From positions 109,554,001 to 109,618,000 of the forward strand of contig OZ024740.1 in NCBI GenBank assembly GCA_964016885.1: DNA of 64,000 nucleotides, given 5' to 3'. Of this stretch, positions 22,670 through 64,000 are shown in pieces. The notes beneath the pieces were generated by a model. That model was not told the DNA's origin. It saw only the letters and a list, made by a program, of their open reading frames with translations, and made no database searches. Position 1 is the stretch's first letter. Each line of letters begins with the position of its first letter. The position numbers and the translations under genes were made by a program. The stretch is from Eledone cirrhosa (taxonomy: Eukaryota).

Positions 22670-22736
22670 TATATATATATATATAAAATAAAGTTAAATA
22701 AAAAGTCAAATGTTTAAAATTTAGCTTCGTTTATTG

Positions 22737-22791
22737 CTGCTATATATATATTTCAGTGACAGCCATCTTTGGCTGTGACCTCTTCAGGCAG
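22737..22791 (-). ncRNA. Type I hammerhead ribozyme (left-arm copy)
   Basis: Exact reverse complement of 25629-25683. Confidence 0.85.
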
Positions 22792-23700
22792 TCCGAATTA
22801 GTGTGGTATAGACAAGTACATATGTTGTTGAGGTGTATAATATTGTCAATACTCTGATATGCCCAGTTCCTGGTTGGGTTGTTATTTCACTGAGGAACTG
22901 GAATCATGAATTCAAACAAACGAATTTCAGTGTCAAAGGGCCTCTTCTCCTCTCATTGGTCAGTTGTTAGAACATTCCTCATTCTAAGTGTTGTTATTGT
23001 TGGAGTTAGCTTAAAAAATTGATAAAGTGGTAGAAGGGACAAGGTGTTAAAGGAACAAAATAACAAAAAAAGTGTCAAACTTCTCATTGGTCAGCTCTGA
23101 GAGCATTCCTCAGTCAGAAGTCTATAGAATTCTTTCTGTAGTGTTTGTGTTTGCTATTGTTAAGTACATTTGACCTCTACCATTATTTTGGTAGTGTTGT
23201 TGGTGTTGTGGTCAGCTTATGTCTTGCTTTTGTTGACAATTTAGAAGTATCTGTGTGTGTTTTTTCTTCATCTCTCCTGCCACCATCTCTCATAGTGGTG
23301 GTGGTGGTGGGGGGGGGGGGTTCTTCCATGTATATGAAGAAATATAGGGCAATAAATGAAGAAAACAGAAAATAAATAATATAATTTGTATAATTTGAAA
23401 ATAGAGAATAAAGAATAAAGAATAAATGAAAAATTGGTGAAAAAGTAATGAAAATGAATATGGAGAAGTGAAAAATAAAATGAAGATTCAAATAAAGTAG
23501 GATAAAGTGTGTGTGTGCTATAACCAATCTCAAGGTTAGAAATATGTTGGATAGATTGGTATGAGGAAACAAGATGTTAAAATAAGATAATCAAACAAAA
23601 TGTGTTTGTGTAATAATCAATCTCAACTTAAAAATAAATATAAGGTGATACAGTGAAGAGGGCAGAAAACAAATAACAAATTAATAAAGAGAAATCAGGA

Positions 23701-24447
23701 GCACTTGATAAATGCTTCCCGAGGGACCACAGATACCACAGGATCTTCAACAGACACACTGTGAAGCTCTCGTATTCCACCACGAGAGATCTGGCCCAAC
23801 ATATAGCTAGCATCAACAGGAGTAGGCTTAAAAACCACACACAACCAGAAGATGGCAATACAAACACTCAGCAGAACCATGTGAAAGGAGGGAAGGGGGG
23901 ATCCAGAGCCCACCCAAGAAACCCAAACAGACCCGGGGACCCCTCACCGTGCCTGGGGGAAGACCAATATGTAACTCATAATGGAAACCCTAATCTAGGC
24001 ACGCAGAGGTCGACCACCCTCTGCAACTGCAGAAACTCCGAATCATGCCCCCTTGGTAATGAATGCCTCAAGAAGAACCTAGTATACGGTTGTAGGGTTA
24101 AAACCCCCAACTCCGAACACCTCTACATAGGAGCCACATCAACGAGCTTTAAAGACTGCTGGTACAACCATTGCCATTCATTCAATAAGGAGGCCAAAAG
24201 GAAAAGCACGGCTCTCTCCGACCTGATCTGGAAGCTTAAGCTGGAGAGAACCCCGTACTCTCTGGCCTGGTACATAATCAGGAAAGTACCACCCGATAAA
24301 GGGGGATCTTGCATATGCAAACTATGCCTGAACGAGACCCTCGAGATACTAAGAGGTGGAAGCGGCCTGATAAACCTCAGAACCGACTTCTTCGGGACAT
24401 GCAGACACCTGAGAGCCGGGACCTTCCTTAAGATATATGGACAGTAG
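23701..24447 (+). CDS. Penelope-like ORF C-terminus (linker plus GIY-YIG endonuclease), 5'-truncated
   Basis: Open from the inversion junction: ALDKCFP..HRIFNRHTVKLSYS, CNCRNSESCPLGNECL, LVY..LYIG, FKDCWYNH, CKLCLNE and CRH. Confidence 0.88.
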   Translation, partial: ALDKCFPRDHRYHRIFNRHTVKLSYSTTRDLAQHIASINRSRLKNHTQPEDGNTNTQQNHVKGGKGGSRAHPRNPNRPGDPSPCLGEDQYVTHNGNPNLGTQRSTTLCNCRNSESCPLGNECLKKNLVYGCRVKTPNSEHLYIGATSTSFKDCWYNHCHSFNKEAKRKSTALSDLIWKLKLERTPYSLAWYIIRKVPPDKGGSCICKLCLNETLEILRGGSGLINLRTDFFGTCRHLRAGTFLKIYGQ

Positions 24448-25628
24448 CAACACAAGAAGATGTGAACTCCCCTCAAGCTATAGGGACTTCTACTGAACAT
24501 GTAAACACCTCTCAGCCAGACCTCCCTCAAGCTATATGGGCAGTAACAACACCCTAGGTTGTGAACTCCCCTCAAGCCATAGGGAACAACCCAGGCTGAG
24601 CAGACACCATGATAGCCTAGAGATTGAATTGGACACAGCCATTATAATTTGGCCAACATCTATATAACACAAACACTTTTAATTTACTTGATTTCTGACT
24701 TTCAAGTCCCAATTTTAAATCCTGATTTCTCTTTATTAATTTGTTATTTGTTTTCTGCCCTCTTCATTGTATCACCTTATATTTATTTTTAAGTTGAGAT
24801 TGATTATTACACAAACACATTTTGTTTGATTATCTAATTTTAACATCTTGTTTCCTCATACCAATCTATCCAACATATTTCTGACCTTGAGATTGGTTAT
24901 AGCACACACACACTTTATCCTACTTTATTTGAATCTTCATTTTATTTTTCACTTCTCCATATTCATTTTCATTACTTTTTCACCAATTTTTCATTTATTC
25001 TTTATTCTTTATTCTCTATTTATTTTCAAATTATACAAATTATATTATTTATTTTCTGTTTTCTTCATTTATTGCCCTATATTTCTTCATATACATGGAA
25101 GAACCCCCCCCCCCCCCCCCCACTATGAGAGATGGTGGCAGGAGAGATGAAGAAAAAACACACACAGATACTTCTAAATTGTCAACAAAAGCAAGACATA
25201 AGCTGACCACAACACCAACAACACTACCAAAATAATGGTAGAGGTCAAATGTACTTAACAATAGCAAACACAAACACTACAGAAAGAATTCTATAGACTT
25301 CTGACTGAGGAATGCTCTCAGAACTGACCAATGGGAAGTTTGACACTTTTTTTGTTATTTTGTTCCTTTAACACCTTGTCCCTTCTACCACTTTATCAAT
25401 TTTTTAAGCTAACTCCAACAATAACAACACTTAGAATGAGGAATGTTCTAACAACTGACCAATGAGAGGAGAAGAGGCCCTTTGACACAGAAATTCATTT
25501 GTTTGAATTCATATGATTCCAGTTCCTCAGTGAAATAACAACCCAACCAGGAACTGGGCATATCAGAGTATTGACAATATTATACACCTCAACAACATAT
25601 GTACTTGTCTATACCACACTAATTCGGA

Positions 25629-25683
25629 CTGCCTGAAGAGGTCACAGCCAAAGATGGCTGTCACTGAAATATATATATAGCAG
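25629..25683 (+). ncRNA. Type I hammerhead ribozyme (right-arm copy)
   Basis: Stem I CTGC/GCAG; CTGAAGA; stem II GGTCACAGCCA-AAGA-TGGCTGTCACT; GAAA; self-complementary (TA)5 stem III; predicted AUA cleavage after 25679. Confidence 0.88.
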
Positions 25684-26943
25684 CAATAAACGAAGCTAAA
25701 TTTTAAACATTTGACTTTTTATTTAACTTTATTTTACATTACTCCGGAGTAACCAAACCAACCTGCGCACTTCGTCGAGTGCTCCAGCCTGCATACTGAG
25801 GTGTTGGTATACAACCAACATATACTCAAAATCTATATATATATATTGGAAAATGTGTGAATACACCTGTAGTTCTAAACAATTTAATTTGATTTTATAA
25901 TATTTTACAATTTGGTTTTGTAGATCTAGTAAGTTCTTTGCTGACTTCGGTGGGGAGATTTTTAAAGATTGCTGGTTAAATTTTGTTTAGAACTTTCTCG
26001 CATTATTTGGTGGCAATTGTCAAACTGATCTCGAGTTGCGTTGTGATGTGTGACTCTATATATGAGATTTGAGTGGATCGGGGGTTAATGAGTGTGAGAG
26101 TGATGGAGTCTTGATGAAGATTTAAGAAAATTAAAGCATATAAATATATATATATATATATATCTCGTATGGTTGCTAGGATGCGTCCATAGGTGGTATG
26201 CCGGTTGAGCACTCTATGCTCCTTTGGAACAGAGTGATCGATCGGAACACAATTTATTACCTATTACAATTGTTTCTCTGGCGAACAGCTCGAGGTGCGA
26301 TCTGTTTGTGGATCGAACCTGACTCTGCATTCGCAAGTTCCTCAGATACCCCTAGTGATTTCGAACCAAATTCTCTTTCTGCTGGACTCCGACCCTTTGA
26401 ATGTTTATCATCTGCCATCATCCTGTTTGTGTGGCACTTAGATTGGTTGATAGTGCGTGATGTCATCATAGTGCTTGACTATTGAAATCTGCCCACTGAC
26501 CATTTCCATTCAGGCGTGAGCTGTCACTCACCCCAATCCCGTCGCCAAAATTACTGCTGTGTGTAGTAGAGTTTTTATGAATTCCCATGCCAATCCCTTG
26601 CTTGCCTGCCTCCCCGCACATGTGCTCACACCTATATACAGGCACTCCAAGCCATTAATCATACACTTATCTGTGTGGACCTACACATACACATAGAGCT
26701 TGTGTGTGTGTGTTCACACATGTACATATATATATTCACCACTCATATATAGGTACATTCATATGCAGACACATGCCCACACGTACACATAGGGGACCCA
26801 TGTATATACAAATATCTATTCATACACAGTCACCACCCTCCACTCTGAAGCGTGAAACTAATACTAATATCATTTGTACTGCCTCTTCGTTTTTCTGTTT
26901 TTTGTTCTCTGTTTATTTATTAAACTATATATATATATATATA

Positions 26944-38213: not shown

Positions 38214-38543
38214 TCATCGTCGTTTTTTTTTACGTCCGCTTTTCCCTGCTTGCAAGGGTGGGACGGGAACTGATTCTGGCTTGATTTCTACAGCTGGATG
38301 CCCTTCCTAACACCAACCTCATTTACATTGAGTGCTGGGTGCTTTTTGCCGTGGCACCTCCACGACCACTTTGCAGTGGAATGATATGGACCCCGTCCCT
38401 ATCATTACATTTCTACAGCTGAGTAAACTGGAGCAATGTGAAATAAAGTGTCTTGCTCAAGGAAAAAACACATCACCCGGTCTGAGAATTGAACTCACAA
38501 CCTTTCGATTGCAAGGCCAATGCTCTAACCACTAAGCCATGTG

Positions 38544-42186: not shown

Positions 42187-45100
42187 CATCATCATCATCA
42201 TCATCATCAACGTTTAACGTCCGTGTTCCACGCTTGCATGGGTTTGGACGGGGGTAGTCCCACTTGAGGCAAGAGTGATTGTCTTGCTCGCATAGGACTG
42301 TCTGGCAGGTTTTCTACAGTTGGATGCCCTTCCTAACACCAACCACATTTACAGTGTGGGTCTGGGAGGTTTTTACCGTGTTGCCTACACGGCCACATTA
42401 CAGCGTGGACTGTGTGTTTTTTTGTCGTGACACCTACACGATCTCATTTGTTTCGGCCTCGATGGCGCGGCACCAACATAACTTTACATAGAACGGGGTG
42501 GTGTGGATGGGGTGGGGGTGGGACGGGGTGTATTTTGTTAGAGATGCCTACTGGCTGGAGTAGGTTTTACTATATATTTAGGTAAGGCGGGTCTTCTCTG
42601 TTACTGAGTACCGCCAAAGGTCTCGGTCCAGTGACATTGTCTTGGAGAGGTGTAAGTGTGTGATGTCGGAGTTTATCAGTTCGTCCCAGGTTTTTCTAGG
42701 TCTGCCTATTCCGTGACTACCGTCTATCTTTATTGCCCTGCACTTTGTTATACAGCTATCGACTTTCATGCGCATCACGTGTCCATACCAATGTAGCCTT
42801 CTCTCGAGTAAACAACATCTGATCCCTCTTATCTCTAATTTTTTCCTTAGTTCGTTTATGCTTTGCCGTTCACGTATATTACTGTTACACATCCAGCGGA
42901 GCATGCAAGCTTCGTTCCTCTCTAGTCTGCGTATATCCTCTGCACACAATGCCCAGGTCTCACTGCCATGCAGCATTGCTGTTCGTATGCAGGCATCGTA
43001 CAACCTGCCTTTCATTTTTAGGGAGAACCCTTTAGCAGCTAATAGTGGTATAAGCTCTCTGAACTTTTTCCAACCAGTTCTGACTCTAGCTAGTACTTTC
43101 AGAGCACCCTCCCCCACTGCTGATTTTATCGCCCAGGTAACGGAAGCTGTCCACTATTTCTATAGAACCCTCTGCGCAATTGAAAGAGCTAGTATTTTGT
43201 GGGCACTTGCTGCTACTTATTGCACCAGAACACCGGCCACATGTAAAATCTATGTTCTTAGTTAGCTTACCTGTGATCCCACTACATCTTTTATGCACCC
43301 ATACTTTGCATTTAGGACATAAAATGGAGTTTCTACCTACGCCTTTCCTACACACCGAGCACGACCATTTCCCAGAAGGGACCGCCGCCTTGTTTTCTTT
43401 CCTACAAACTAGTACTTTGGTCTTAGCCAGGTTAATTTTAAGTCCTTTTGACTCTAGGCCGTGCTTCCATGTTTGGAATTTCTTCTCTAGCTCGGCCATT
43501 GATTCCGCTATGAGTGTCAGGTCGTCTGCGTATAGGAGTTCCCATGGGCAGCCTGTCTTGAACTCCTCTGTTATAGCCTGAAGGGCAATAATAAATAGTA
43601 GGGGGCTGAGAACAGAGCCCTGATGGACGCCAACTTTTACGCTAAACTCTTCACTATATTCGTTGTTAATTCTAACCTTGCTGACTGTTTCTTTATACAT
43701 GGCTTGTATAGCCCTCACAAGCCATTCGTCAACGCCTAGTTTTCTAAGAGCCCACCAGATAATGGAGCGGGGGACTCTGTCGAAGGCTTTCTCCAAGTCG
43801 ACAAAAGCTAAGTAGAGGGGTTTACCTTTAGCTAGGTACTTCTCCTGTAGTTGTCGTACTATGAAAAGAACATCTGTGGTACTTTTGCCTGACACAAACC
43901 CGAACTGCATTTCATCTAGGTCAATTCTCTCTCTGATTAGTTGCGCTATTACTTTTGCCGTGACCTTCATGACCTGGTCGATTAATTTAATGCCTCTATA
44001 GTTACTCCTATCTAGGGCGTCTCCTTTACCCTTATAACAGTTAACGATGATGCTGCTATGCCAGTCCTTCGGAACAACCCCATTCTGTACGACTTGGTTA
44101 ACTATGCGGGTGACCATGGTGTGTCCCACCGTGCCAGATGCCTTCAGCATCTCAGCAACTATTTCTGAAGGCCCAGCCGCCTTACCCGTCTTCATATCCT
44201 TGATTGCCTTACTTATTATACTCCCCTCGACTAACACTGCTGGTCCCTCTATTGGGTCGATATGGGGGAGACTGTCTTTCTCCCATTTATTCTCCTCATT
44301 TAGTAGCCTTTCATAGTGACACTTCCAAGCTACCTTCTTATCAGCGTCGGTGATGGCAAGTGTGCCATCGTCGTTTAGTACACACTTCTCCCCGACAATA
44401 TCACGGTTTTCCTTGACGCATTGCCTAGCAATCCTGAACACCTCACGTTTTTGGTCATCGCGTTGTAGAACATGCTTGAACTTTCTTTCCTCAGCTTCCC
44501 TTCTTGCTAAGTACACTTGTCTCCTAGCTTCCCTCCTGGCCACTTGATAGTCTTCTCTACTTCCCCCATCCCGCCATACTTTCCAAGCCTGCTTTTTGGC
44601 CTTAATTGACCCCTCCACCTTACTGTTCCACCACCATGTTACTCTCCTCCTGCCTACAGGCCTGCTCCAGCCACAGACTTCGTCTGTCGCCAACAGCAGG
44701 TTTGCTTTCAGAAATTCCCACTCTCCCTCTATATTGTCCGACTCTAAATGTTCTTCCTTACTGTCGAAAGCATCAAGTAATATGCTTTGAAATTTATTCC
44801 TGGCTGTGGGGTCCTTTAGCTTCCATATTTTTCTCCTGAGGATAGTCCTCTTTTGTTGTCGAGTACGTCTCGTCCTGACTATGAGGTCGCTAATTATCAG
44901 TCTATGTTGGGAGGTGCATTCTTCATGGGGGAGGGATTTAGTGTTTACAACAGACACTCTGTCACGTCTTCTGGTAAGGATATAATCTACCTGGCTTGTG
45001 TGTTCCCCGGATCTATAGGTGATCAGGTGATTGTCACGTTTTTTGAAGTTAGTGTTACAGATAGTTAGGTTATTTGCATCACAGAATTCCAGGATTCTGG

Positions 45101-45205
45101 AGCCTTCCTCATTTCTAGTACCAAACCCATAGCCTCCATGGATTTCGTCGTAGCCGTCACAATGTTGACCAACGTGACCGTTTAGGTCGCCTGCGATAAT
45201 TATAT
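42187..45205 (-). mobile_element. Young RTE LINE, 5'-truncated (APE C-half, RT, PHD insert, 3' UTR, (GAT)n tail)
   Basis: ORF 43086-45205 has GDLNGHVG, QVDYIL, SQHRL, FVDLEKAFDRV, QGSVLSP and YADD. It continues in 42578-43117 after a single 2-bp deletion near 43093. Confidence 0.97.
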
Positions 45206-45624
45206 AGTTAATATATATATATATATATACACACACACATATTGAAATTACTGAAACTCTCAAAATAGAATATTTTACTCATTTATAATTTGATATTTTT
45301 CATATAGTATAGTTTAATAAAAGAAGATTTCACTCCACCCCTCTCTCTCACCACCTTTCCATAAAGAGGTGACATAAAAATTCAGCATTTGCTGCTGTTG
45401 CCATCCCTCTCTCTCTCTATTGAACATATATTCTTACTATTCCTTTTCCACAGCTGGGCCACATTTTTACACTACAACTCTCAAAAATAAAAAAGAAATT
45501 TACAATTTTTATTCACATATTTTAAAAATAACGAATAAAAAGAAAAGGAAGAAATTTGAATAGTGGAAGTAAAGGAAAGTGAAGGAGGAATCGACCCTCT
45601 ACACCCAGATTCAAGCAGTATGTC

Positions 45625-51669: not shown

Positions 51670-52112
51670 AGAGGGGGGAGAGAAGATATACTGCAAGATA
51701 TGGATAGATAGAGAGATAAATAGCTAAAGATAGGTAGAGAGAGTGAAAGAGATAGCAGGGAGCTAGATATATGATGAGTTACTTGATGAGGAGGTCCTGT
51801 GTGACTGCTGTAAAAGCAGCAACAGTTTAATATTATTCTGGGACAATATATAGCAGACAATCTATGTGTTGTTCATAATTGTTATACTTGGTTGTGTGAC
51901 TTGCTGCAGAGTAACCAAGGCAATATATATAATATATGCACCACCATAATACATAGATGAACATTCAATAATATACTATATATCCACTCATATATATTTA
52001 TTCTTACTATATACACTCTGCTATAGCATTGAGTGCTGGTAATGGTACCTTCCTCAGTAAACCACAAATCTACTGAATCACCTAATCTATATCTATCTAT
52101 CTCTATATATAT

Positions 52113-52318
52113 GTGAGTCCTGGGTTCAATCGGGGGTAACCACAGTAAGTAAGGTACTCAATACATTAGTAGAGTATATACAGCAAAATTTAATATAGAA
52201 ATGGCTTCTACAAGACTAGAACTGTTTCATTTGAAGGAAATCATTAGGAAAGCTTTTCTGATGATTTCCTTCGAATGAAACAGTTCTAGTCCTGTAGAAG
52301 CCATTTCTATATTAAATT
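52113..52318 (-). mobile_element. Palindromic hammerhead mini-element, copy 1
   Basis: Arms 52187-52252 and 52253-52318, plus a 75-bp unpaired tail matching 60898-60970 in reverse. (TA)n lies next to the tail. Confidence 0.9.
52252..52301 (+). ncRNA. Type I hammerhead ribozyme
   Basis: GCTTTT/GAAGC stem I; CTGATGA; T-TTC-CTTC-GAA-T; GAA-ACAG-TTCTAGTC-CTGT-A. Predicted GUA cleavage after 52296. Confidence 0.8.
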
Positions 52319-52540
52319 CTCTCTCACTCTTTCTCTGTATGTATGAGCAAGACAAGGTCAGCTGACCGGGCACTGCCCACAACAGGACAACCCGTCTAAC
52401 CCATGCTAGCGTGCAAGAATGGACGTAAAACGGTGATGATGATGATATAAGAGAGAGAGGGGTCTTATTTTACAGATTACCTATCTGTCTTTATCTATCT
52501 ATTCATATCCCATTCATCTATCCCTATGTCTGTTCATCTA

Positions 52541-52645
52541 ATCTATCTATGCTTACCTACCTAGCTTCACATCTATCTATGCTTACCTACCTAGCTTCAC
52601 ATCTATCTATGCTTACCTACCTAGCTTCACATCTATCTACCTATC
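52541..52645 (+). repeat. Tandem repeat, 30-bp unit x3
   Basis: ATCTATCTATGCTTACCTACCTAGCTTCAC. It supplies a spurious N-terminus to the 522-aa ORF. Confidence 0.95.
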
Positions 52646-52656
52646 TAGAGATATAT

Positions 52657-54937
52657 TTCAAGCATGTTCTACAACGTGAGGACCAAAAACGTGAGGTGTT
52701 CAGGATTGCCAAGCAATGTGTCAAGGAAAACCGTTATATTGTCGGGGAGAAGTGTGTACTTAACGATGATGGCATACTTGCCATCACCAACGCTGATAAG
52801 AAGGTAGCTTGGAAGTGTCACTACGAAAGGCTTCTAAATGAGGAGAACAAATGGGAGAAAGACAGTCTCCCCCACATCGACCCAATAGAGGGACCAGCAA
52901 TGTTAGTCCAGGGTAGTACAATAAGCAAGGCAATCAGAGATATGAAGACGGGTAAGGCGGCTGGTCCTTCGGAAATAGTTGCTGAGATGCTGAAGGCATC
53001 TGGTTCGGTGGGACACACCATGGTCACCCGGATAGTTAACCAAGTCGTACAGAATGGGGTTGTTCCGAAGGACTGGCGTAGCAGCATCATCGTTAACTGC
53101 TATAAGGGAAAAGGAGATGCCCTAGATAGGAGTAACTATAGAGGCATTAAATTAATCGACCAGGTCATGAAGGTCACGGAAAAAGTAATAGCGCAACTAA
53201 TCAGAGAGAGAATTGATCTAGATGAAATGCAGTTCGGGTTTGTGTCAGGCAAAAGTACCACAGACGCTCTTTTCATTGTACGACAACTACAGGAGAAGTA
53301 CCTAGCTAAAAGTAAACCCCTATACTTAGCTTTCGTCGACTTGGAGAAAGCCTTCGACAGAGTCCCCCGTTCCATTATCTGGTGGTCTCTTAGAAAACTA
53401 GGTGTTGACGAATGGCTTGTGAGAGCTATACAAGCCATGTATAAAGAAACAGTCAGTAAGGTTAGAATTAACAACGAATATAGTGAAGAGTTTAGCGTAA
53501 AAGTTGGTGTCCATCAGGGCTCTGTTCTTAGCCCCCTACTATTTATTATTGCCCTTCAGGCTATAACAGAGGAGTTCAAGACCGGCTGCCCATGGGAACT
53601 CCTATACGCAGATGATCTAACGCTCATAGCTGAATCAATGACCGAACTAGAGAAGAAATTCCAAACATGGAAGCACGGCCTAGAATCAAAAGGCCTTAAA
53701 ATTAACCTGGCTAAGACTAAAGTTCTAGTTTGTAGGAAAGAAAATAAGGCGGCGGTCCCATCTGGGAAATGGCCATGCTCAGTGTGTAGGAAAGGCGTAG
53801 GTAGAAACTCCATTTTATGTCCCAAATGCAAAGTATGGGTGCATAACAGATGTAGTGGGATCACAGGTAAGCTAACTAAGAACATAGATTTTACATGTGG
53901 CCGGTGCTCTGGTGCAATAAGTAGCAGCAAGTGCCCACAAAATACTAGCTCCTTCAACTGCGCAGAGGGTTCTATAGAAATAGTGGACAGCTTCCGTTAC
54001 CTGGGTGACAAAATCAGCAGTGGGGGAGGGTGCTCTGAAAGTACAGTAGCTAGAGTCAGAACTGGATGGAAAAAGTTCAGAGAGCTTATACCACTATTAG
54101 CTGCTAAAGGGTTCTAAAAATGAAAGGCAGGTTGTACGATGCCTGCATACGAACAGCAATGCTGCATGGCAGTGAGACCTGGGCATTGTGTGCAGAGGAT
54201 ATACGCAGACTAGAGAGGAACGAAGCTTGTATGCTCCGCTGGATGTGCAATAGTAATATACGTGAACGGCAAAGCATAAACGAACTAAGGAAAAAATTAG
54301 AAATAAGAGGGATCAGATGTTGTTTACTCGAGAGAAGGCTACGTTGGTACGGTCACGTGATGCGCATGAAAGACGACAGCTGTATAACAAAGTGCAGGGC
54401 AATAAAGATAGACGGTAGCCACGGAGTAGGCAGACCCAGAAAAACATGGGACAAGCTGATAAATTCCGACCTCACACGCTTACACCTCTCCAAGACAATG
54501 TCACTGGACCGAGACCTTTGGCGGTACTCAGTAATAGAGAAGACCCGCCTTACCTAAATACAAAGTAAAAACCTACTACAGTCAGTAGGCATCTCTATCA
54601 AAACACACCACCTCCACCCCATCCACACCACCCCTTTCAATGTAAAGTTATGTTGGTCCCACAACATCCAGGCCGAAACAAATGAGATCGTGTAGGTGTC
54701 ACGACAAAAAACACACAGTCCACGCTGTAAATGTGGCCGTGTAGGCAACACGGTAAAAACCTCCCAGCCCCACACTGTAAATGTGGTTGGTGTTAGGAAG
54801 GGCATCCAGCTGTAGAAAACCCACCAGACAGTCCTATGCGAGCAAGACAACCACTCTTGCCTCAAGTGGGAAAACCCCCGTCCAAACCCATGCAAGTGTG
54901 GAACACGGACGCTAAACCTGATGATGATGATGATGAT
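52657..54937 (+). mobile_element. Young RTE LINE, 5'-truncated (RT, PHD insert, 3' UTR, (GAT)n tail)
   Basis: ORF runs to 54117 and resumes at 54120-54557 after a 4-bp deletion. The protein is nearly identical to the 42187-45205 copy. Confidence 0.97.
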
Positions 54938-55059
54938 ATTTAGATATCTGTCCCATATATTTTGCTCTCTGTCTATTAACTGTCACAGCTTCCCATTTTC
55001 CCTTCCAAATGTCTATTTACCTACTCAGCATAAACCTATTTTCTTATCTCTCTACCAAG

Positions 55060-55850
55060 CCATCTTCCACCAAACTATCCTTCCACCTAACCATCCTTCC
55101 ACCTAACCATGCTCCCACCAAACCATCTTCCCCCCTAACCATCCTTACATCAAACCATCCTCCCTCCTAACCATCCTTCCTCATAGCCATCCTTCCACCA
55201 AGCCATTTTTAATAATAATAATGAAATTATTGTGTACAGTGCTCAGGTGCACTACAACTCGTCAAAGGTGTATGTATAGTACATAGAATAATATACAAAT
55301 GTCAGGGAAGTGAATAGTGTATGAGTCATGATATACATGTGTGTATGTGTATGGAGGGGGAATATTAGGTGTAGTGTTGGCGAATCTCGGGAAGTATGGA
55401 GGTTTTAAAAGATGCAGTGTCTCGACAGCTAACAACTGATGCAGGTAGTTTGTTCCATGCTTCAGCAACTCTGAGTGTGAAAAAATGTTTCCGAAAGTCA
55501 TGGGAACTGTGCTGTTTTCTGACTTTGTGGGGATGTCCACGTGTGTTACACACATGGAAATCAAAAAGGTACTCAGGGTTGTTGTTGGCAAGATGGTTAA
55601 TAATTTTGTGGGTGTTTACCAAGTCAGTTGCCAGACGTCGGAGCTTCAATGTATCCATGTCCAGGGAAGCAAGGCGTTCAGAGTATGGTAGATGCCTGAT
55701 GGAGGGTATTCGCTTGGTTGCACGTCTCTGAACAGTTTCCTCCTAACCATCCTCCTACCAAGCCATCCTTCTAACAAACCATCCTTCTATTAAGCCATCC
55801 TTCCACCTAACCATCCTTTCACCCCTAGCTATCCTCCACCCCAAACCATC
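55060..55850 (+). repeat. CCATCCTTCCACCTAA minisatellite split by a CR1 insertion
   Basis: Units are present at 55060-55206 and 55740-55850. Confidence 0.85.
55209..55740 (-). mobile_element. CR1-clade LINE 3' fragment
   Basis: VQRRATK..LPYSERLASL..RRLATDL..TRGH..FFTLRVAEAWNKLP, ending in an (ATT)n tail. Confidence 0.9.
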
Positions 55851-58769
55851 CTTTTACATTTTCTTTTTCTACATAGCTATCTACATAGCCAACTTACTAT
55901 TTCCATCCATGGGTCCTGAACTCCTGAAACTGTCATAAGTGTATCACAGTGATACACAGTGTAGCATGTGTTGGGCAATTTTTACCTGGCAGATCCCCTC
56001 CTTCTCCAGGTACAACTCATTTTTGCCAGCTGGAGCAACATGAAATAACGTGTCTTGCTCAAGGACACAATGCACCACCAGGAACTAACTGATAGTGGCT
56101 CCCTGAATCTCCTAACCCCTATGCCACATACCTTCGCAGACATCATGTATAGGTAAGGTATCTACAGCAATTGTGACTTTCTACTGTTAAAGTTGACTTG
56201 GTTGTTATACTTGTAACACCTGTGTGTGTGGAGGGGGGGGGGGCTGTGTAAGAGTGTGTTTGGTTAGACACCACACTGATATGGTATTTGATAGATAGAA
56301 GAAAGAATGTAAGGAACATAATTTAATTAATGTGGTACACCAGAATTAACCATTTCCATACCAACTTATCCCCCCAAAATGGCCTCTGGTTCTATGAAAC
56401 AAAACCCCACCTTTTTTAATTTTTCGACAATATTATATAAGAACCATATGTTAAGTTACTATCTTAGTAATAAAATAATTAATAATTTTAGTAAAATTCT
56501 CCATAAATAAATAGACTGCTGCTGTTGTTGAGTCCTAGATGAACCCTGATTGAACAGACTTATGATCAAAGTAATTCCAAATATGACTAGCATATCTTTT
56601 TCTTTTGTGCAGGGAACCCAGTATGAAATTATCCAAGATATTTTTTTATATGATGATCCAGTAGTGTGTGATTTGAGGGAGATTTGGCTGCTATTTCTAG
56701 CAAGTCAAATGACCACGTAGCAGCTCGCTGTTGACTCAATTAAACAGTGTGTAGTGGTGCTAATGGTGTTGGTAAAGAGGGTGGTACAGGTAGTAATAAT
56801 GGTGAGGTGAATGAAGTAAGTAACTATTTACATTAGTGATAGTCATCAGGTATATCCCCAAGATGTACCTTTACACTACACCTGAAGCTATGTTCCTCTG
56901 ACTAATATCATCATCATCATTGTTTAATGTCCATCTTTTCATGCTAGCATGGGTTAGCTGAGTTGTCCCATTGTGAGACAAGCCACATCAGATGACTGTG
57001 TCTTGCTCATACAGAACTGTTTCTGGCTTGTTTTCTATGGCTGGATGCCCTTCCTAATGCCAACCACATTTACAGAGTGTACTGGGTACTTTTTGTCATG
57101 TCACCAGCATGGGCACTGTCTCTATAAGTGTGTCTTTCTCTATATATATTTGTATATGCATGTATAGGTATTTATGTGTGCAGAGGAGATAACAAAGGAC
57201 TGCGATTGGAAGGATGTGCTGTGCTGGTAAAGACCCATCAAACCCATGCAAGCATAGTAAAGCAGGCATAAAATGATAAAGATTATTATGTGTATAAGAA
57301 TATAAATGCATGTGTAAATATGTGTCAACATATATATATATATATATTTGTATATAGGTATATGTATGTTATTGTGTGTGTGTGTGTGTATATCTGTGTA
57401 ATATGTGTGTGTAACATATATATATATAGAGATATATGTAAAATGTGTATATATTTGTGTGTGTGTATATAATATGCACACACATAGGACACAGTCACAG
57501 AAAAGTAGTGGCTGTAAAGAATAAAGGAAGAAGACAGTATGGTTCATGTTAAGCGTTAACCATTGTCTCACACTTCAAAGGAGGAATTTGCCAAAGAATT
57601 CAATTTATTTTCATTGCTGCTATCTCTTCTATCTCTCCATCTCTGTTGGTTAATAAGATAGATAACAGTCCCATGAAGCCAATCATTTGAAGCTACAGGT
57701 AAATGTATTGGATACCCTATCATGTGGAAAACACCCTCACCAGTACCAGCACCATCAACACCAACACCACCACCAGCAGCACCTCCACCACCGCCACTAT
57801 TACTACTATAATGGTGGTGGCAACAAAGTGGGGGGAGCAGTGACAGGAGTATTTGCATGCTCATTGATTTGAGAGAAGCAGATTTAGAGACTTGAAGTCT
57901 TGGAAGATCCCAACCTGCTTCTGACTAACTGTTCTAGGTGAGCAGTTGTATATGATGGTGGGGCATAGTGGTGGTGGTGGGGCATAGCGGTGGTGGTAAG
58001 TGTTGTGGTGGTGATGGTGATGGGGAGTTGTGGTGGTGAGGGGTGCGGTGGAGTGTTATGGTGGAGGTGATGGTAGGGTGTTATAGAGGTGGGGCGTTAT
58101 AGTGGTGGTGGTGGGAGCTGTAATGGTATAGTGGCAATCGAGTGTGGTGGCAGAGTGTTATGGTAGTGGGGATATGATGTGGTGGGGTTGATGTTTGAGG
58201 CATGTATAAACAATAATGCAATAATGTGAATTCATGTTTTGGTGGATTCAAAGTTTATAAAATGCATCACTCAAAAACAGAAATTTGTTGAAGTTATCAT
58301 ATGTGCATGTACACACAGACACACAAACAAGCACCTGCACAGTCACGCACACACACACACAGATACACAGCTACAACTGTGTGCTACAGAAGTTCACTTT
58401 GGAACCTTGAGGTTTAGGGCTCTTGTGAAGGAATTTGATAGAAATTGTACGGATGTGTATGTGTATATATATACATACACGCACACACTCACACATACGC
58501 AAATATATATATATACTCACAAACACACAAATATATATATATATATATCATCGTTTTAACATCCACTTCCCCTGGTAGCAAATATATCTCCATCCTGTGA
58601 GGTAATCATGCTGGTGCCATGACAAAAAGCACCCAGTTTACCCTGTAAGTTGGTTGTGTTGGTGACACAACAAAAAACGCCCAGTTTACCCTGGATGGCA
58701 GTTGTTTTAGTGCCATGATAAAAAAGCACCCAGTCCACACTGTAAGTCAGTTGGTGTTGATGTGCTCTT

Positions 58770-59275
58770 TGTGCTCACTTCCTTTGTGCATCTGCCACAT
58801 GTAAAGTCTATATTTTCTGTTAGCCTACCTGCAATCTCACTACATCTCTTTTGCATCCATAATTTACATTTTGTGCACCTTATGGAATTTCTATTCCCTC
58901 ATTTCTAGCATATTGAGGAAGGCCACTTTTCCTATGGTACTAGACTCCTGCCTTTTTTCCTATTTAAGATTTTCATCTTTGCTAGATTTACTTTTAGGCC
59001 TTTCAACTCTAGGTTCTTCCATGCTTGAAATTTTGCTTCTATGGATTCAGCTATAAGGACTAGCTCATCAGCTTATATGAGCTCCCACGGAGTACTAGTT
59101 TTAAAATCCTCAGTGATGCCCTGAAGGACAATGATAAACATGAGTGGACTGGGGGATGATCCCAAGTGGACCCCCACCTGCACTTCAAATTCATGACTGT
59201 ACTAATTGCCAACTCTCACTCTACTGGTTGCTCCTCTATACATAGCCTGCATGATCTTCACAAGCTATTCATCAA
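58770..59275 (-). pseudogene. Degraded RTE (PHD family) RT fragment
   Basis: Homologous to 53410-53900: FEVQVGVHLG, PWELI, GKWP and WMQKRCS remnants. Confidence 0.75.
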
Positions 59276-60759
59276 GGAGATGAGACTGTTTGCTTTGCTT
59301 TTCATCCTTTTGAAGTCAAAATAATAAAATACCAGTTGTAGTTTAGGGAGTCTATTCTTTCTCTATCTCTCCTTTAAAAAAACCCCATTTGTTTTCTAAT
59401 CCAAAGCTCAGTAACTATGCATAGATGGATAGGTTGCTGTATCATTCTCATAATTGTAAAGCTTTCAGAAGACATTCAGAGATGAATAGGTAGAAATCTA
59501 CACTATGCTGACCCATGATCTAAGCGTTTCAGCCATAACCACCCACTCTTATTTTCAAACAATATATCCTTAATTACACTTACTAATGTGTCCCGCCTTT
59601 TTATGATGGTACAGTGATTTGAGATGAATTAGGCTGATATTTTTAGCAGTTCAAGTGACTATACAAAGACTTGCTATCATTGTTTTTGTTATAGTTTCTC
59701 TCATTAGAAACTAGATTTTGTTGTTTAGCCCTAGGTCGGTCCTGATCAAGCCTAATTCAAAGATGTTCAAGTTAAGATCATCATGTCTTTTGCTTAGTCA
59801 TAGTGTATCCAGGACTACATTAATTAATGCACCCTCCCTATTTTATGATAGTAAAGTGTAATTTAAGGGAGAGTCATATGCAACTATTTTTAGCAGGTTG
59901 AGTGACCATGTAAAGGCTCTATTGTTGTCTCAGTTAAAAACTAATGTTTATATGTGTGTAAGAAAGAGAGCAGAATGTTTCTGTGTTGTAGATGGAGAGA
60001 AAGTAAGATATGTATATATTCCATATACCGTATATTCTCGTCTATACGTTACACAGGTAGATAAGCTGCACTTCCATTTTACATACACTATTTACAATCA
60101 ACATCATCATATACCTGTTTTCCCTATATATTTTGAATTAGGGTTTTGTAAATCCAGCAGATTTGTTGCATGCTGGTATTTCACATATCTGTGAAAGGTG
60201 TGTAACTTATACGCAAGTACGTACAGCATAACACACACACACATATATATATGAGAGCAGGTGGGGGTAGCATGTTTCCTTGTTGTAGCTGAGAAGAGCA
60301 TGAAAGATAAGTATAGGTAGGTAGATAGACAGATAGATGTAGGTAGCTTGATACACTAACATAAATGGGTGAAGCTATATAGACAGACAGATAACTAGAC
60401 AAAGAAGGAAGGGGTGGATGGATGGATGGATGGATGGATGGATAGTGTTTCTGTTTGGTAGTTGAGAGAGAGAGAGAGAATTTTATGATGAAAAATTGAG
60501 GAAGGTTGTATGTGAAGCTAGAGACAGAAACAGATCAATAACCTATAACATAGCTACTAAATACAGTAGCTTCTAACATGTGGTGGAGAGAGAGAGAGAG
60601 AGAGATGTAGGAACAGGTACTCAATCCTGTTGCTGGCCTTTTCTTTTACACATTCACACACACATAACAGTCCAACTCATGCCAGCATGGAAAACACATA
60701 AAATGATGATGGTATGTGTATATGCATGGAAATATGCATGAGTTTGTGTGTGTGTGTGT

Positions 60760-60970
60760 GTATAACAAAATTTAATATAGAAATGACTTCTACAGGACTA
60801 GAACTGTTTCATTCGAAGGAAATCGACAGGGCTTTACTGATGATTTTCTTCGAATCAAACAGTTCTAGTCCTGTAGAAGCCATTTCTATATTAAATATTG
60901 TTGTATACCGTCTACTAATGTATTGAGTACCTTACTTACTGTGGTTACCCCCGATTGAACCTGGGACTCA
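60760..60970 (+). mobile_element. Palindromic hammerhead mini-element, copy 2
   Basis: Same family as 52113-52318 in the opposite orientation. The plus-arm core is CTGATGA..CAAAC and the minus-arm core is CTGTCGA..GAAAC. Flanked by (TG)n and (CA)n(TA)n. Confidence 0.9.
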
Positions 60971-63814: not shown

Positions 63815-64000
63815 AAGGTGCATGGCTTAGTGGTTAGAGCATTGGGCTTGCAATTGAAAGGTTGTGAGTTCAATTCTCAGACTGGGTGATGTGTTGTTTC
63901 CTTGAGCAAGACACTTTATTTCACATTGCTCCAGTTTACTCAGCTGTAGAAATGAGATGATTGGACTGGAAAGTGGTCGTGGAGGTGCCACGGCAAAAAA
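63815..64000 (+). mobile_element. tRNA-derived SINE, running off the window end
   Basis: Near-identical head to 38400-38545, followed by the start of the RTE-type tail. Confidence 0.88.

Follow-up and report, generated by a model that had tools for sequence, protein, structure and literature searches.

The DNA analysed here, in the following called the window, comprises 64,000 nt of Eledone cirrhosa (assembly GCA_964016885.1, contig OZ024740.1, positions 109,554,001 to 109,618,000 of the forward strand). It contains two short hairpins, each built of two hammerhead-bearing arms in head to head orientation, which we assign to a Penelope-like element (PLE). Our analysis suggests that such hairpins are probably formed by twin cDNAs whose synthesis runs off uncut sense RNA at its capped 5’ end and which are joined head to head at each insertion. 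Short twin cDNAs copied up to the cap and end-joined would account for a fixed stop of the arms (in the following the wall), an extra base behind it, a single tail and a variable junction.

Positions within the element are counted from the C of CTGATGA (position 0); the predicted ribozyme cut is between +38 and +39. Subfamily A is defined by a loop II of CTTC and includes both window copies, while subfamily B has TAAA or TAAT at this place. Subfamily A is star-like with copies about 6% away from the majority. Subfamily B is younger, its copies are nearly identical to each other and show 89% identity to the window arms. The genome is microsatellite-rich and 3.0 Gb in size. For subfamily A we read all of the first 100 listed of 550 copies matching an exact arm-plus-tail pattern, which forces the tailed arm to span +5 to +25. 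Junctions of subfamily B were taken from 100 listed rows representing 86 loci.

The wall and the base behind it

Arm ends of subfamily A accumulate at two neighbouring positions. Among 141 arm ends from the short copies in the sample, 24 are located at -7 and 19 at -6. Positions -8 to -14 are empty, and beyond them one end lies at -15 and two lie at -38. A separate inspection by eye of arms reaching -7 revealed that 1 of 100 listed (of 246) continues for at least 3 bases upstream. Subfamily B arms stop at -6, and 3 of 100 listed arms (of 1,747) continue in the template. The first T of the TATA box found in longer copies is at -37 in subfamily A and at -36 in subfamily B. The wall is thus situated at TATA+30 in both subfamilies, the usual polymerase II spacing, and coincides with the first base of hammerhead helix I. 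Moreover the wall of subfamily B is the A of CCAGATT, which we take to be an initiator-like motif. Based on this arrangement we infer that the wall represents the predicted transcription start of the parent element. The hairpin centre is fixed because the arms stop at the wall, which bears out the suggestion of a preliminary description of this DNA that the inversion is position-specific.

A wall at the first base of helix I in both subfamilies would also be expected if reverse transcriptase stalled or jumped at the helix base and the match to TATA+30 was due to the location of the ribozyme. However, thousands of long arms pass this point, namely 3,408 promoter-bearing arms of subfamily B, and a reverse transcriptase arriving at -6 would already have opened helix I from its 3’ side. 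In addition, a stall predicts neither a non-templated C nor the presumably initiator-like CCAGATT with its A at the wall. We consider a stall to be quite improbable.

The letter following -6 in the cDNA of subfamily B is C in 71, G in 23, A in 3 and T in 3 of the 100 listed rows, where the template predicts G. After removal of 34 rows that are fully explained by the other arm, C is retained in 48 of 66. If starts with CTG or CCTG are removed as well, 45 rows remain with 27 C, 13 G, 3 A and 2 T (p 7e-7 against 1/4). Both arms carry the extra base in 8 of 86 loci. It was seen by eye in none of 100 listed promoter-bearing subfamily B copies (of 3,408). In subfamily A the base next to tailed arms ending at -7 is G in 16 of 16 listed copies where the template has C, many of them overlapping with the other arm. 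The first 30 listed rows of arms reaching -7 in this subfamily give C 18, T 7, G 3 and A 2. An untemplated 5’ G has been explained as a copied cap for L1 and SVA (PMC4859970). We infer the same for the extra base of the hairpins, which would be a G in sense orientation. Such a cap-like base, located at the 5’ end in sense orientation, speaks in favour of a sense and not an antisense template.

The window hairpins and their probable formation at each insertion

The window copies consist of the following parts.

52110..52318, no strand: complete insertion of hairpin copy 1, flanked by (TA)n/(TCTA)n and (TC)n repeats
52110..52253, minus strand: tailed arm of copy 1, from -6 through the hammerhead to the tail end, core CTAATGA at 52247-52241
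52110..52187, minus strand: tail of copy 1, between two inferred reverse transcriptase start sites
52252..52318, plus strand: untailed arm of copy 1, intact CTGATGA at 52258-52264, predicted cut site GTA at 52294-52296
52250..52255, no strand: junction AAGCTT of copy 1, where both arms reach -6 and overlap by 2 bases
60760..60970, no strand: complete insertion of hairpin copy 2, flanked by (TG)n and (AC)n(AT)n
60760..60830, minus strand: untailed arm of copy 2, reaching -1, core mutated to CTGTCGA
60829..60970, plus strand: tailed arm of copy 2, core at 60837-60843, GTA at 60873-60875
60829, plus strand: G of copy 2 that is absent from the parent template; the G at -7 (60830) is the predicted RNA start
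60897..60970, plus strand: tail of copy 2, continuing into the parent 5’ untranslated region (UTR) and the start of its open reading frame (ORF) in longer copies

As the preliminary description had stated, the same element is present twice in opposite orientations. Each copy has one tail. BLASTN aligns 52113-52318 to 60769-60970 with 90.2% identity over 205 bases (E 1e-77) and matches each copy to itself on the other strand. Copy 2 folds into one long hairpin (z = -16.3), a value that none of 200 shuffles equals. The claim of a near-identical inversion point holds insofar as the two centres are close to each other. They are not the same, since in copy 2 the tailed arm extends to -7 plus the extra G and the untailed arm to -1 only, so that the two junctions deviate from each other by three bases. 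The core mutations are different in all four arms, as described before: CTAATGA and an intact core in the tailed and untailed arm of copy 1, CAAAC instead of GAAAC and CTGTCGA in those of copy 2.

The flanks of the two copies are unrelated, which together with the differing junctions supports independent insertions. Opposite orientation at a distance of 8.5 kb could likewise point to two parts of one local inverted duplication. This is refuted by a similarity that ends at the element ends, by the different junctions and by a divergence of 10%, and we assign it virtually no probability. A larger segmental duplication, named in the preliminary description as a possible objection, is excluded on the same grounds. 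A rough estimate of 3,700 subfamily A copies leads to about 40 pairs 8.5 kb apart expected by chance. Two copies at this distance are thus not special, and the window copies are ordinary members of a huge family.

Genome-wide, one exact pattern detects 5,260 hairpins in head-to-head arrangement, compared to 0 for the control. Their loop II is present in many variants, whereas the TTC/GAA stem enclosing it is constant. According to automatic thresholds the 100 listed subfamily A copies comprise 54 short hairpins, 33 short arms without a clear inverted partner and 13 copies with upstream sequence. Several of the 33 partnerless arms keep a remnant visible by eye, and two represent a local tandem duplicate. 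Hence hairpins are the main class though not the sole one.

Exactly one tail is present in 81 of the 86 subfamily B loci, two tails in 2 and none in 3. Tailed arms end at about +132, untailed arms at +53 to +66. Concerning sequence variants, the two arms of one subfamily A hairpin share 11 variants compared to 4.3 in shuffles (4 of 2,000 as high). A hairpin mixing TAAA and TAAT does not occur in the 100 listed subfamily B rows; arms that never mix the two loops imply that both stem from one source.

The preliminary description had also proposed that the hairpin itself is the propagated unit. A master hairpin transcribed and copied as a small non-autonomous element would be in line with uniform ends and with a few recurring junctions, namely GATTCCT in 10, CCT in 9 and CT in 9 of the 100 listed subfamily B rows. 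However, these common junctions are found with the tail on either side and with both loop types, and the same rows contain 47 junction forms in spite of nearly identical copies. The check for arm-specific variants suggested earlier was negative: at 28 positions in 82 subfamily A hairpins, tailed and untailed arms do not differ beyond chance (smallest p 0.04). The hairpin contains no promoter; CCAAT and TATA occur in longer copies. Finally, the covariation of helix I between the subfamilies (2 of 6 pairs) points to selection on the ribozyme fold, which would be buried in a full hairpin transcript. Propagation of a master hairpin is thus already contradicted and very unlikely. Neither an inherited junction nor a fixed polarity nor arm-specific variants were found, as would be expected of a self-propagating hairpin comparable to a miniature inverted-repeat transposable element (MITE) or a retrozyme. 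The comparison of junctions and variants indicates that the hairpins are likely made afresh at each insertion and not inherited. Overall the preliminary interpretation is partly supported; it missed the parent element and the predicted transcription start as the cause of the shared centre.

Twin cDNAs or a single folded cDNA

In the model of twin cDNAs the element protein would cut both strands of a (TA)n target and one cDNA would be primed at each of two internal start sites bounding the tail. With priming at the sites close to the RNA 5’ end, the two cDNAs would be short, pass the uncut ribozyme site and reach the cap. End joining with small trims, overlaps or inserts would then connect them. 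Use of the downstream repeat of the RNA would instead lead to long inverted copies with scattered junctions. Several of these steps have a counterpart in Anolis. The protein of a PLE from this genus was shown in vitro to cut both target strands and to extend them, with two internal start sites delimiting the tail and uncut RNA as template (Frangieh et al. 2024, PMC11167929). A more detailed version, which we put forward tentatively as possible rather than probable, involves one protein dimer holding one capped sense RNA and priming both target strands from a fixed pair of start sites, with both cDNAs copying the cap. The hammerhead would begin at the cap, so that cleavage would remove the cap like a switch, which would be off in the majority of inserted RNAs. 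The thousands of hairpins would then be a fossil record of integration in vivo.

A single cDNA could produce similar insertions if its priming takes place at the tail end and it extends up to the cap, to copy itself after folding back or hairpin closure. The resulting palindrome would later lose part of one side at its tip. In this case, too, the wall would be the RNA start. Such a fold-back explains the one tail (81/86 loci) and the identical variants in both arms equally well, which weighs against the twin cDNAs. It agrees with the tailed arm being more often at the wall than the untailed arm (41 versus 25 of 70 loci), and self-priming has been proposed for Penelope inversions, there on an antisense template (PMC3846280). 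On the other hand, in 18 of the 70 loci the untailed arm alone carries the extra base and the tailed arm is short of the wall. Among five long ORF-bearing pairs the untailed arm is the longer one in two, by 1.0 and 2.15 kb, which would require large one-sided deletions. Moreover, cutting and extension of both target strands has been reported in vitro (PMC11167929). We consider fold-back copying to be rather unlikely, although as the main rival it has more weight than the stall or the master hairpin.

Further points weigh against twin cDNAs running to a cap. Start site and cap are predicted from the DNA sequence, and no RNA record was listed for the 5’ region of the parent. G instead of C is present in 13 of the 45 strictly filtered subfamily B rows, and the extra G of subfamily A mostly overlaps the other arm, so that the evidence for the cap rests on subfamily B. 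Penelope of D. virilis has a TATA-less internal promoter (PMC2377424), hence the promoter type is not general. The samples consist of first listed rows from the largest contigs, selected by exact-pattern filters that fix part of each arm. Concerning the parent, no intact ORF was seen, as L309 is interrupted by one internal stop and L304 and L312 by frameshifts. The connection of the subfamily A tail to the ORF start is given by only one copy, L063 (79% over 131 bases).

The parent element, its hammerhead and related systems

Long copies of the family show CCAAT and TATAAATA upstream of the wall, and the TATA box is carried by 3,408 subfamily B arms, often as inverted pairs 150 bases to 9 kb apart. 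In the subfamily B copies L309, L304 and L312 the parts of the parent are arranged as repeat, hammerhead, tail, ORF, 3’ UTR and the repeat again. The ORF starts at +175 and comprises 713 codons (2.1 kb) with DKT, YRDD, CNCLNKEAC and a GIY-YIG-like end, the latter as a weak Pfam match (E 0.009) below the cut-off. It has 1,852 homologues at E<=1e-10. In the parent DKG is changed to DKT (SSDKTKN), and CNCLNKEAC represents the CxCX5C linker, whose three Cys are invariant in the alignment. No conserved CxxC was found between the VY and YIG strands of the endonuclease in 8 sequences; the CCHH motif, which we assume to be positioned there, is absent. The flanks of the copies show insertion into (TA)n, and the pseudo long terminal repeats (pseudo-LTRs) are both direct and inverted with a tail at one end. 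The parent is thus an EN+ PLE, and its motif features match those of the Hydra clade.

Elements of the Hydra clade are short (under 3 kb). In L309 the two repeats are separated by 5.4 kb including the ORF of 2.1 kb and a 3’ UTR with a long (TA/TG)n tract. More than 2 kb of mixed (TA)/(TG) repeats belong to the 3’ UTR at L309:1300-3650, meaning that the element spreads microsatellites which are also its own target. The (TA)n at the 5’ boundary of long copies, at first a candidate for the element end, was rejected as it is a microsatellite inside the 3’ UTR. Two candidates for the parent were discarded: the ORF piece of L113 stems from a different Penelope family, which has a hammerhead of its own and is present at 24 other loci, and L130 is likewise from another family. 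L113 is chimeric (L113 / L132:5387-6208), with both arms sharing private variants and enclosing a 200-base ORF piece of the different family. The genome contains at least two more Hydra-type families (L136-L159 and L130), which are nested in these same (TA)n tracts. The hammerhead of one family shows a long helix II and a G-C closing pair, whereas a simple pattern detected no hammerhead in the other.

The window itself harbours a second Hydra-type Penelope insertion of another family at 22681-25840. It has long head-to-head arms with a tail at one end only, an ORF piece with CNCRNSESC at 23677-24447 and its own hammerhead-like motif CTGAAGA ... GAAA near 25652-25690. Two long interspersed nuclear element (LINE) copies at 43089-45278 (minus strand) and 52429-54114 (plus strand) are 95% identical in opposite orientation and encode reverse transcriptase and a PHD finger. 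They are unrelated to the hairpins, though one of them starts 330 bases from copy 1. Weak tRNA-like Rfam matches at 63821-63884 and 38482-38539 lie inside a 94% inverted pair and are probably heads of short interspersed nuclear elements (SINEs).

The arms contain the core of a type I hammerhead (CUGANGA, GAAA, NUH) and its three helices. In 7 hand-picked arms 96.7% of cells are paired, compared to 32-44% in slid controls. Two of six pairs in helix I are changed on both sides between the subfamilies in these arms, a covariation that is weak because the arms are related sequences. CTAG is centred on helix III, and two copies of this stretch pair at -12.8 kcal/mol. The intact hammerhead consensus claimed before is right as to a Penelope-type hammerhead, but U-U replaces the G10.1-C11.1 pair, and Rfam yields no hammerhead match in the window. 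For the three main loop types, T-T was counted in 107 of 109, 70 of 71 and 48 of 48 arms, respectively. Single arms fold no better than shuffles. For self-cleavage there are hints at most, in the form of arms ending at +37 to +40.

Since most arms pass the cut site, most templates were seemingly uncut. There are some hints of a cut minority, none of them decisive. Two joints lie at +39 and +40 in contigs of four runs; the depth of these contigs cannot reveal a transcription start and is not used for that purpose. At L304:3890-3910 a nearly full-length arm starts at +40, one base past the predicted cut, and is preceded by a short insert of templated sequence. Only 59 hairpins with a gap of up to 30 bases are centred on the cut site genome-wide, and by eye about half of the 50 listed show one of their ends at +37 to +39. 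As the pattern favours short arms and misses pairs of a cut and a full arm, this result is no argument on cleavage in either direction. Among 30 loci selected by their tail, none has a tailed arm ending at +39, and an inverted arm is present in 21 of them.

The architecture of the element is already known. Hydra clade elements share the short single ORF, DKT, YRDD, the CxCX5C linker and the C-terminal GIY-YIG, as well as a hammerhead in the repeat, (TA)n insertion, an inverted 5’-truncated partner and the tail at one end (Craig et al. 2021, PMC8557442 / bioRxiv 2021.04.23.441226). The tail is longer here (about 75 bases versus 30-40), and the accessible text of that report describes neither ORF-less 200-base hairpins as main product nor a wall or cap base. 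The Poseidon element PAc of Anolis resembles our element in its two tail-defining start sites of reverse transcription, the AT-rich target, a predicted dimer and uncut RNA as main template (PMC11167929). It belongs to another clade and its ORF begins inside the hammerhead rather than 175 bases past the core; the portion of text available does not deal with head-to-head products or 5’ run-off. Minimal PLE hammerheads have a type I core, a short helix III and a palindromic, dimer-suited loop, and their pairs on opposite strands 100-700 bases apart have been noted (Cervera and De la Pena 2014, PMC4209133). Different from those, the hammerhead described here has U-U for G10.1-C11.1, a helix II of 3 pairs and a helix I starting at the predicted RNA 5’ end. 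Adineta likewise has inverted repeats that are arranged head to head and carry one tail (Arkhipova et al. 2013, PMC3846280). Its authors prefer self-priming with an antisense template, whereas the extra sense 5’ G of our hairpins speaks for a sense template with a cap.

Two primers on one RNA leading to an inversion and an extra G as copied cap are features of L1 twin priming, too (PMC4859970). In our model both cDNAs copy the same 5’ segment, resulting in a palindrome. The cDNAs of L1 twin priming copy different parts of the RNA.

The origin of tandem and inverted PLE ends has been named open by Craig et al. (PMC8557442), and the choice between sense and antisense template was left undecided by Arkhipova et al. 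(PMC3846280). No account of wall, cap base or one-tail count in Penelope elements was met in the literature searched, older subscription papers (e.g. Arkhipova 2006) and supplements excepted. For annotation it is relevant that the hairpins resemble MITEs or microRNA precursors (weak Rfam miRNA matches) yet are retroelement debris. The junctions make the mechanistic question testable: from sequence, the shortest insertions provide countable clues in the form of a stop at TATA+30, a cap-like sense base, a nearly strict one-tail rule and arms of the same source. They predict the transcription start to the base and the products to be expected from an in vitro system. If the proposed mechanism is true, the hairpins would be a rare record, kept in the genome, of how a Penelope-like element inserts.

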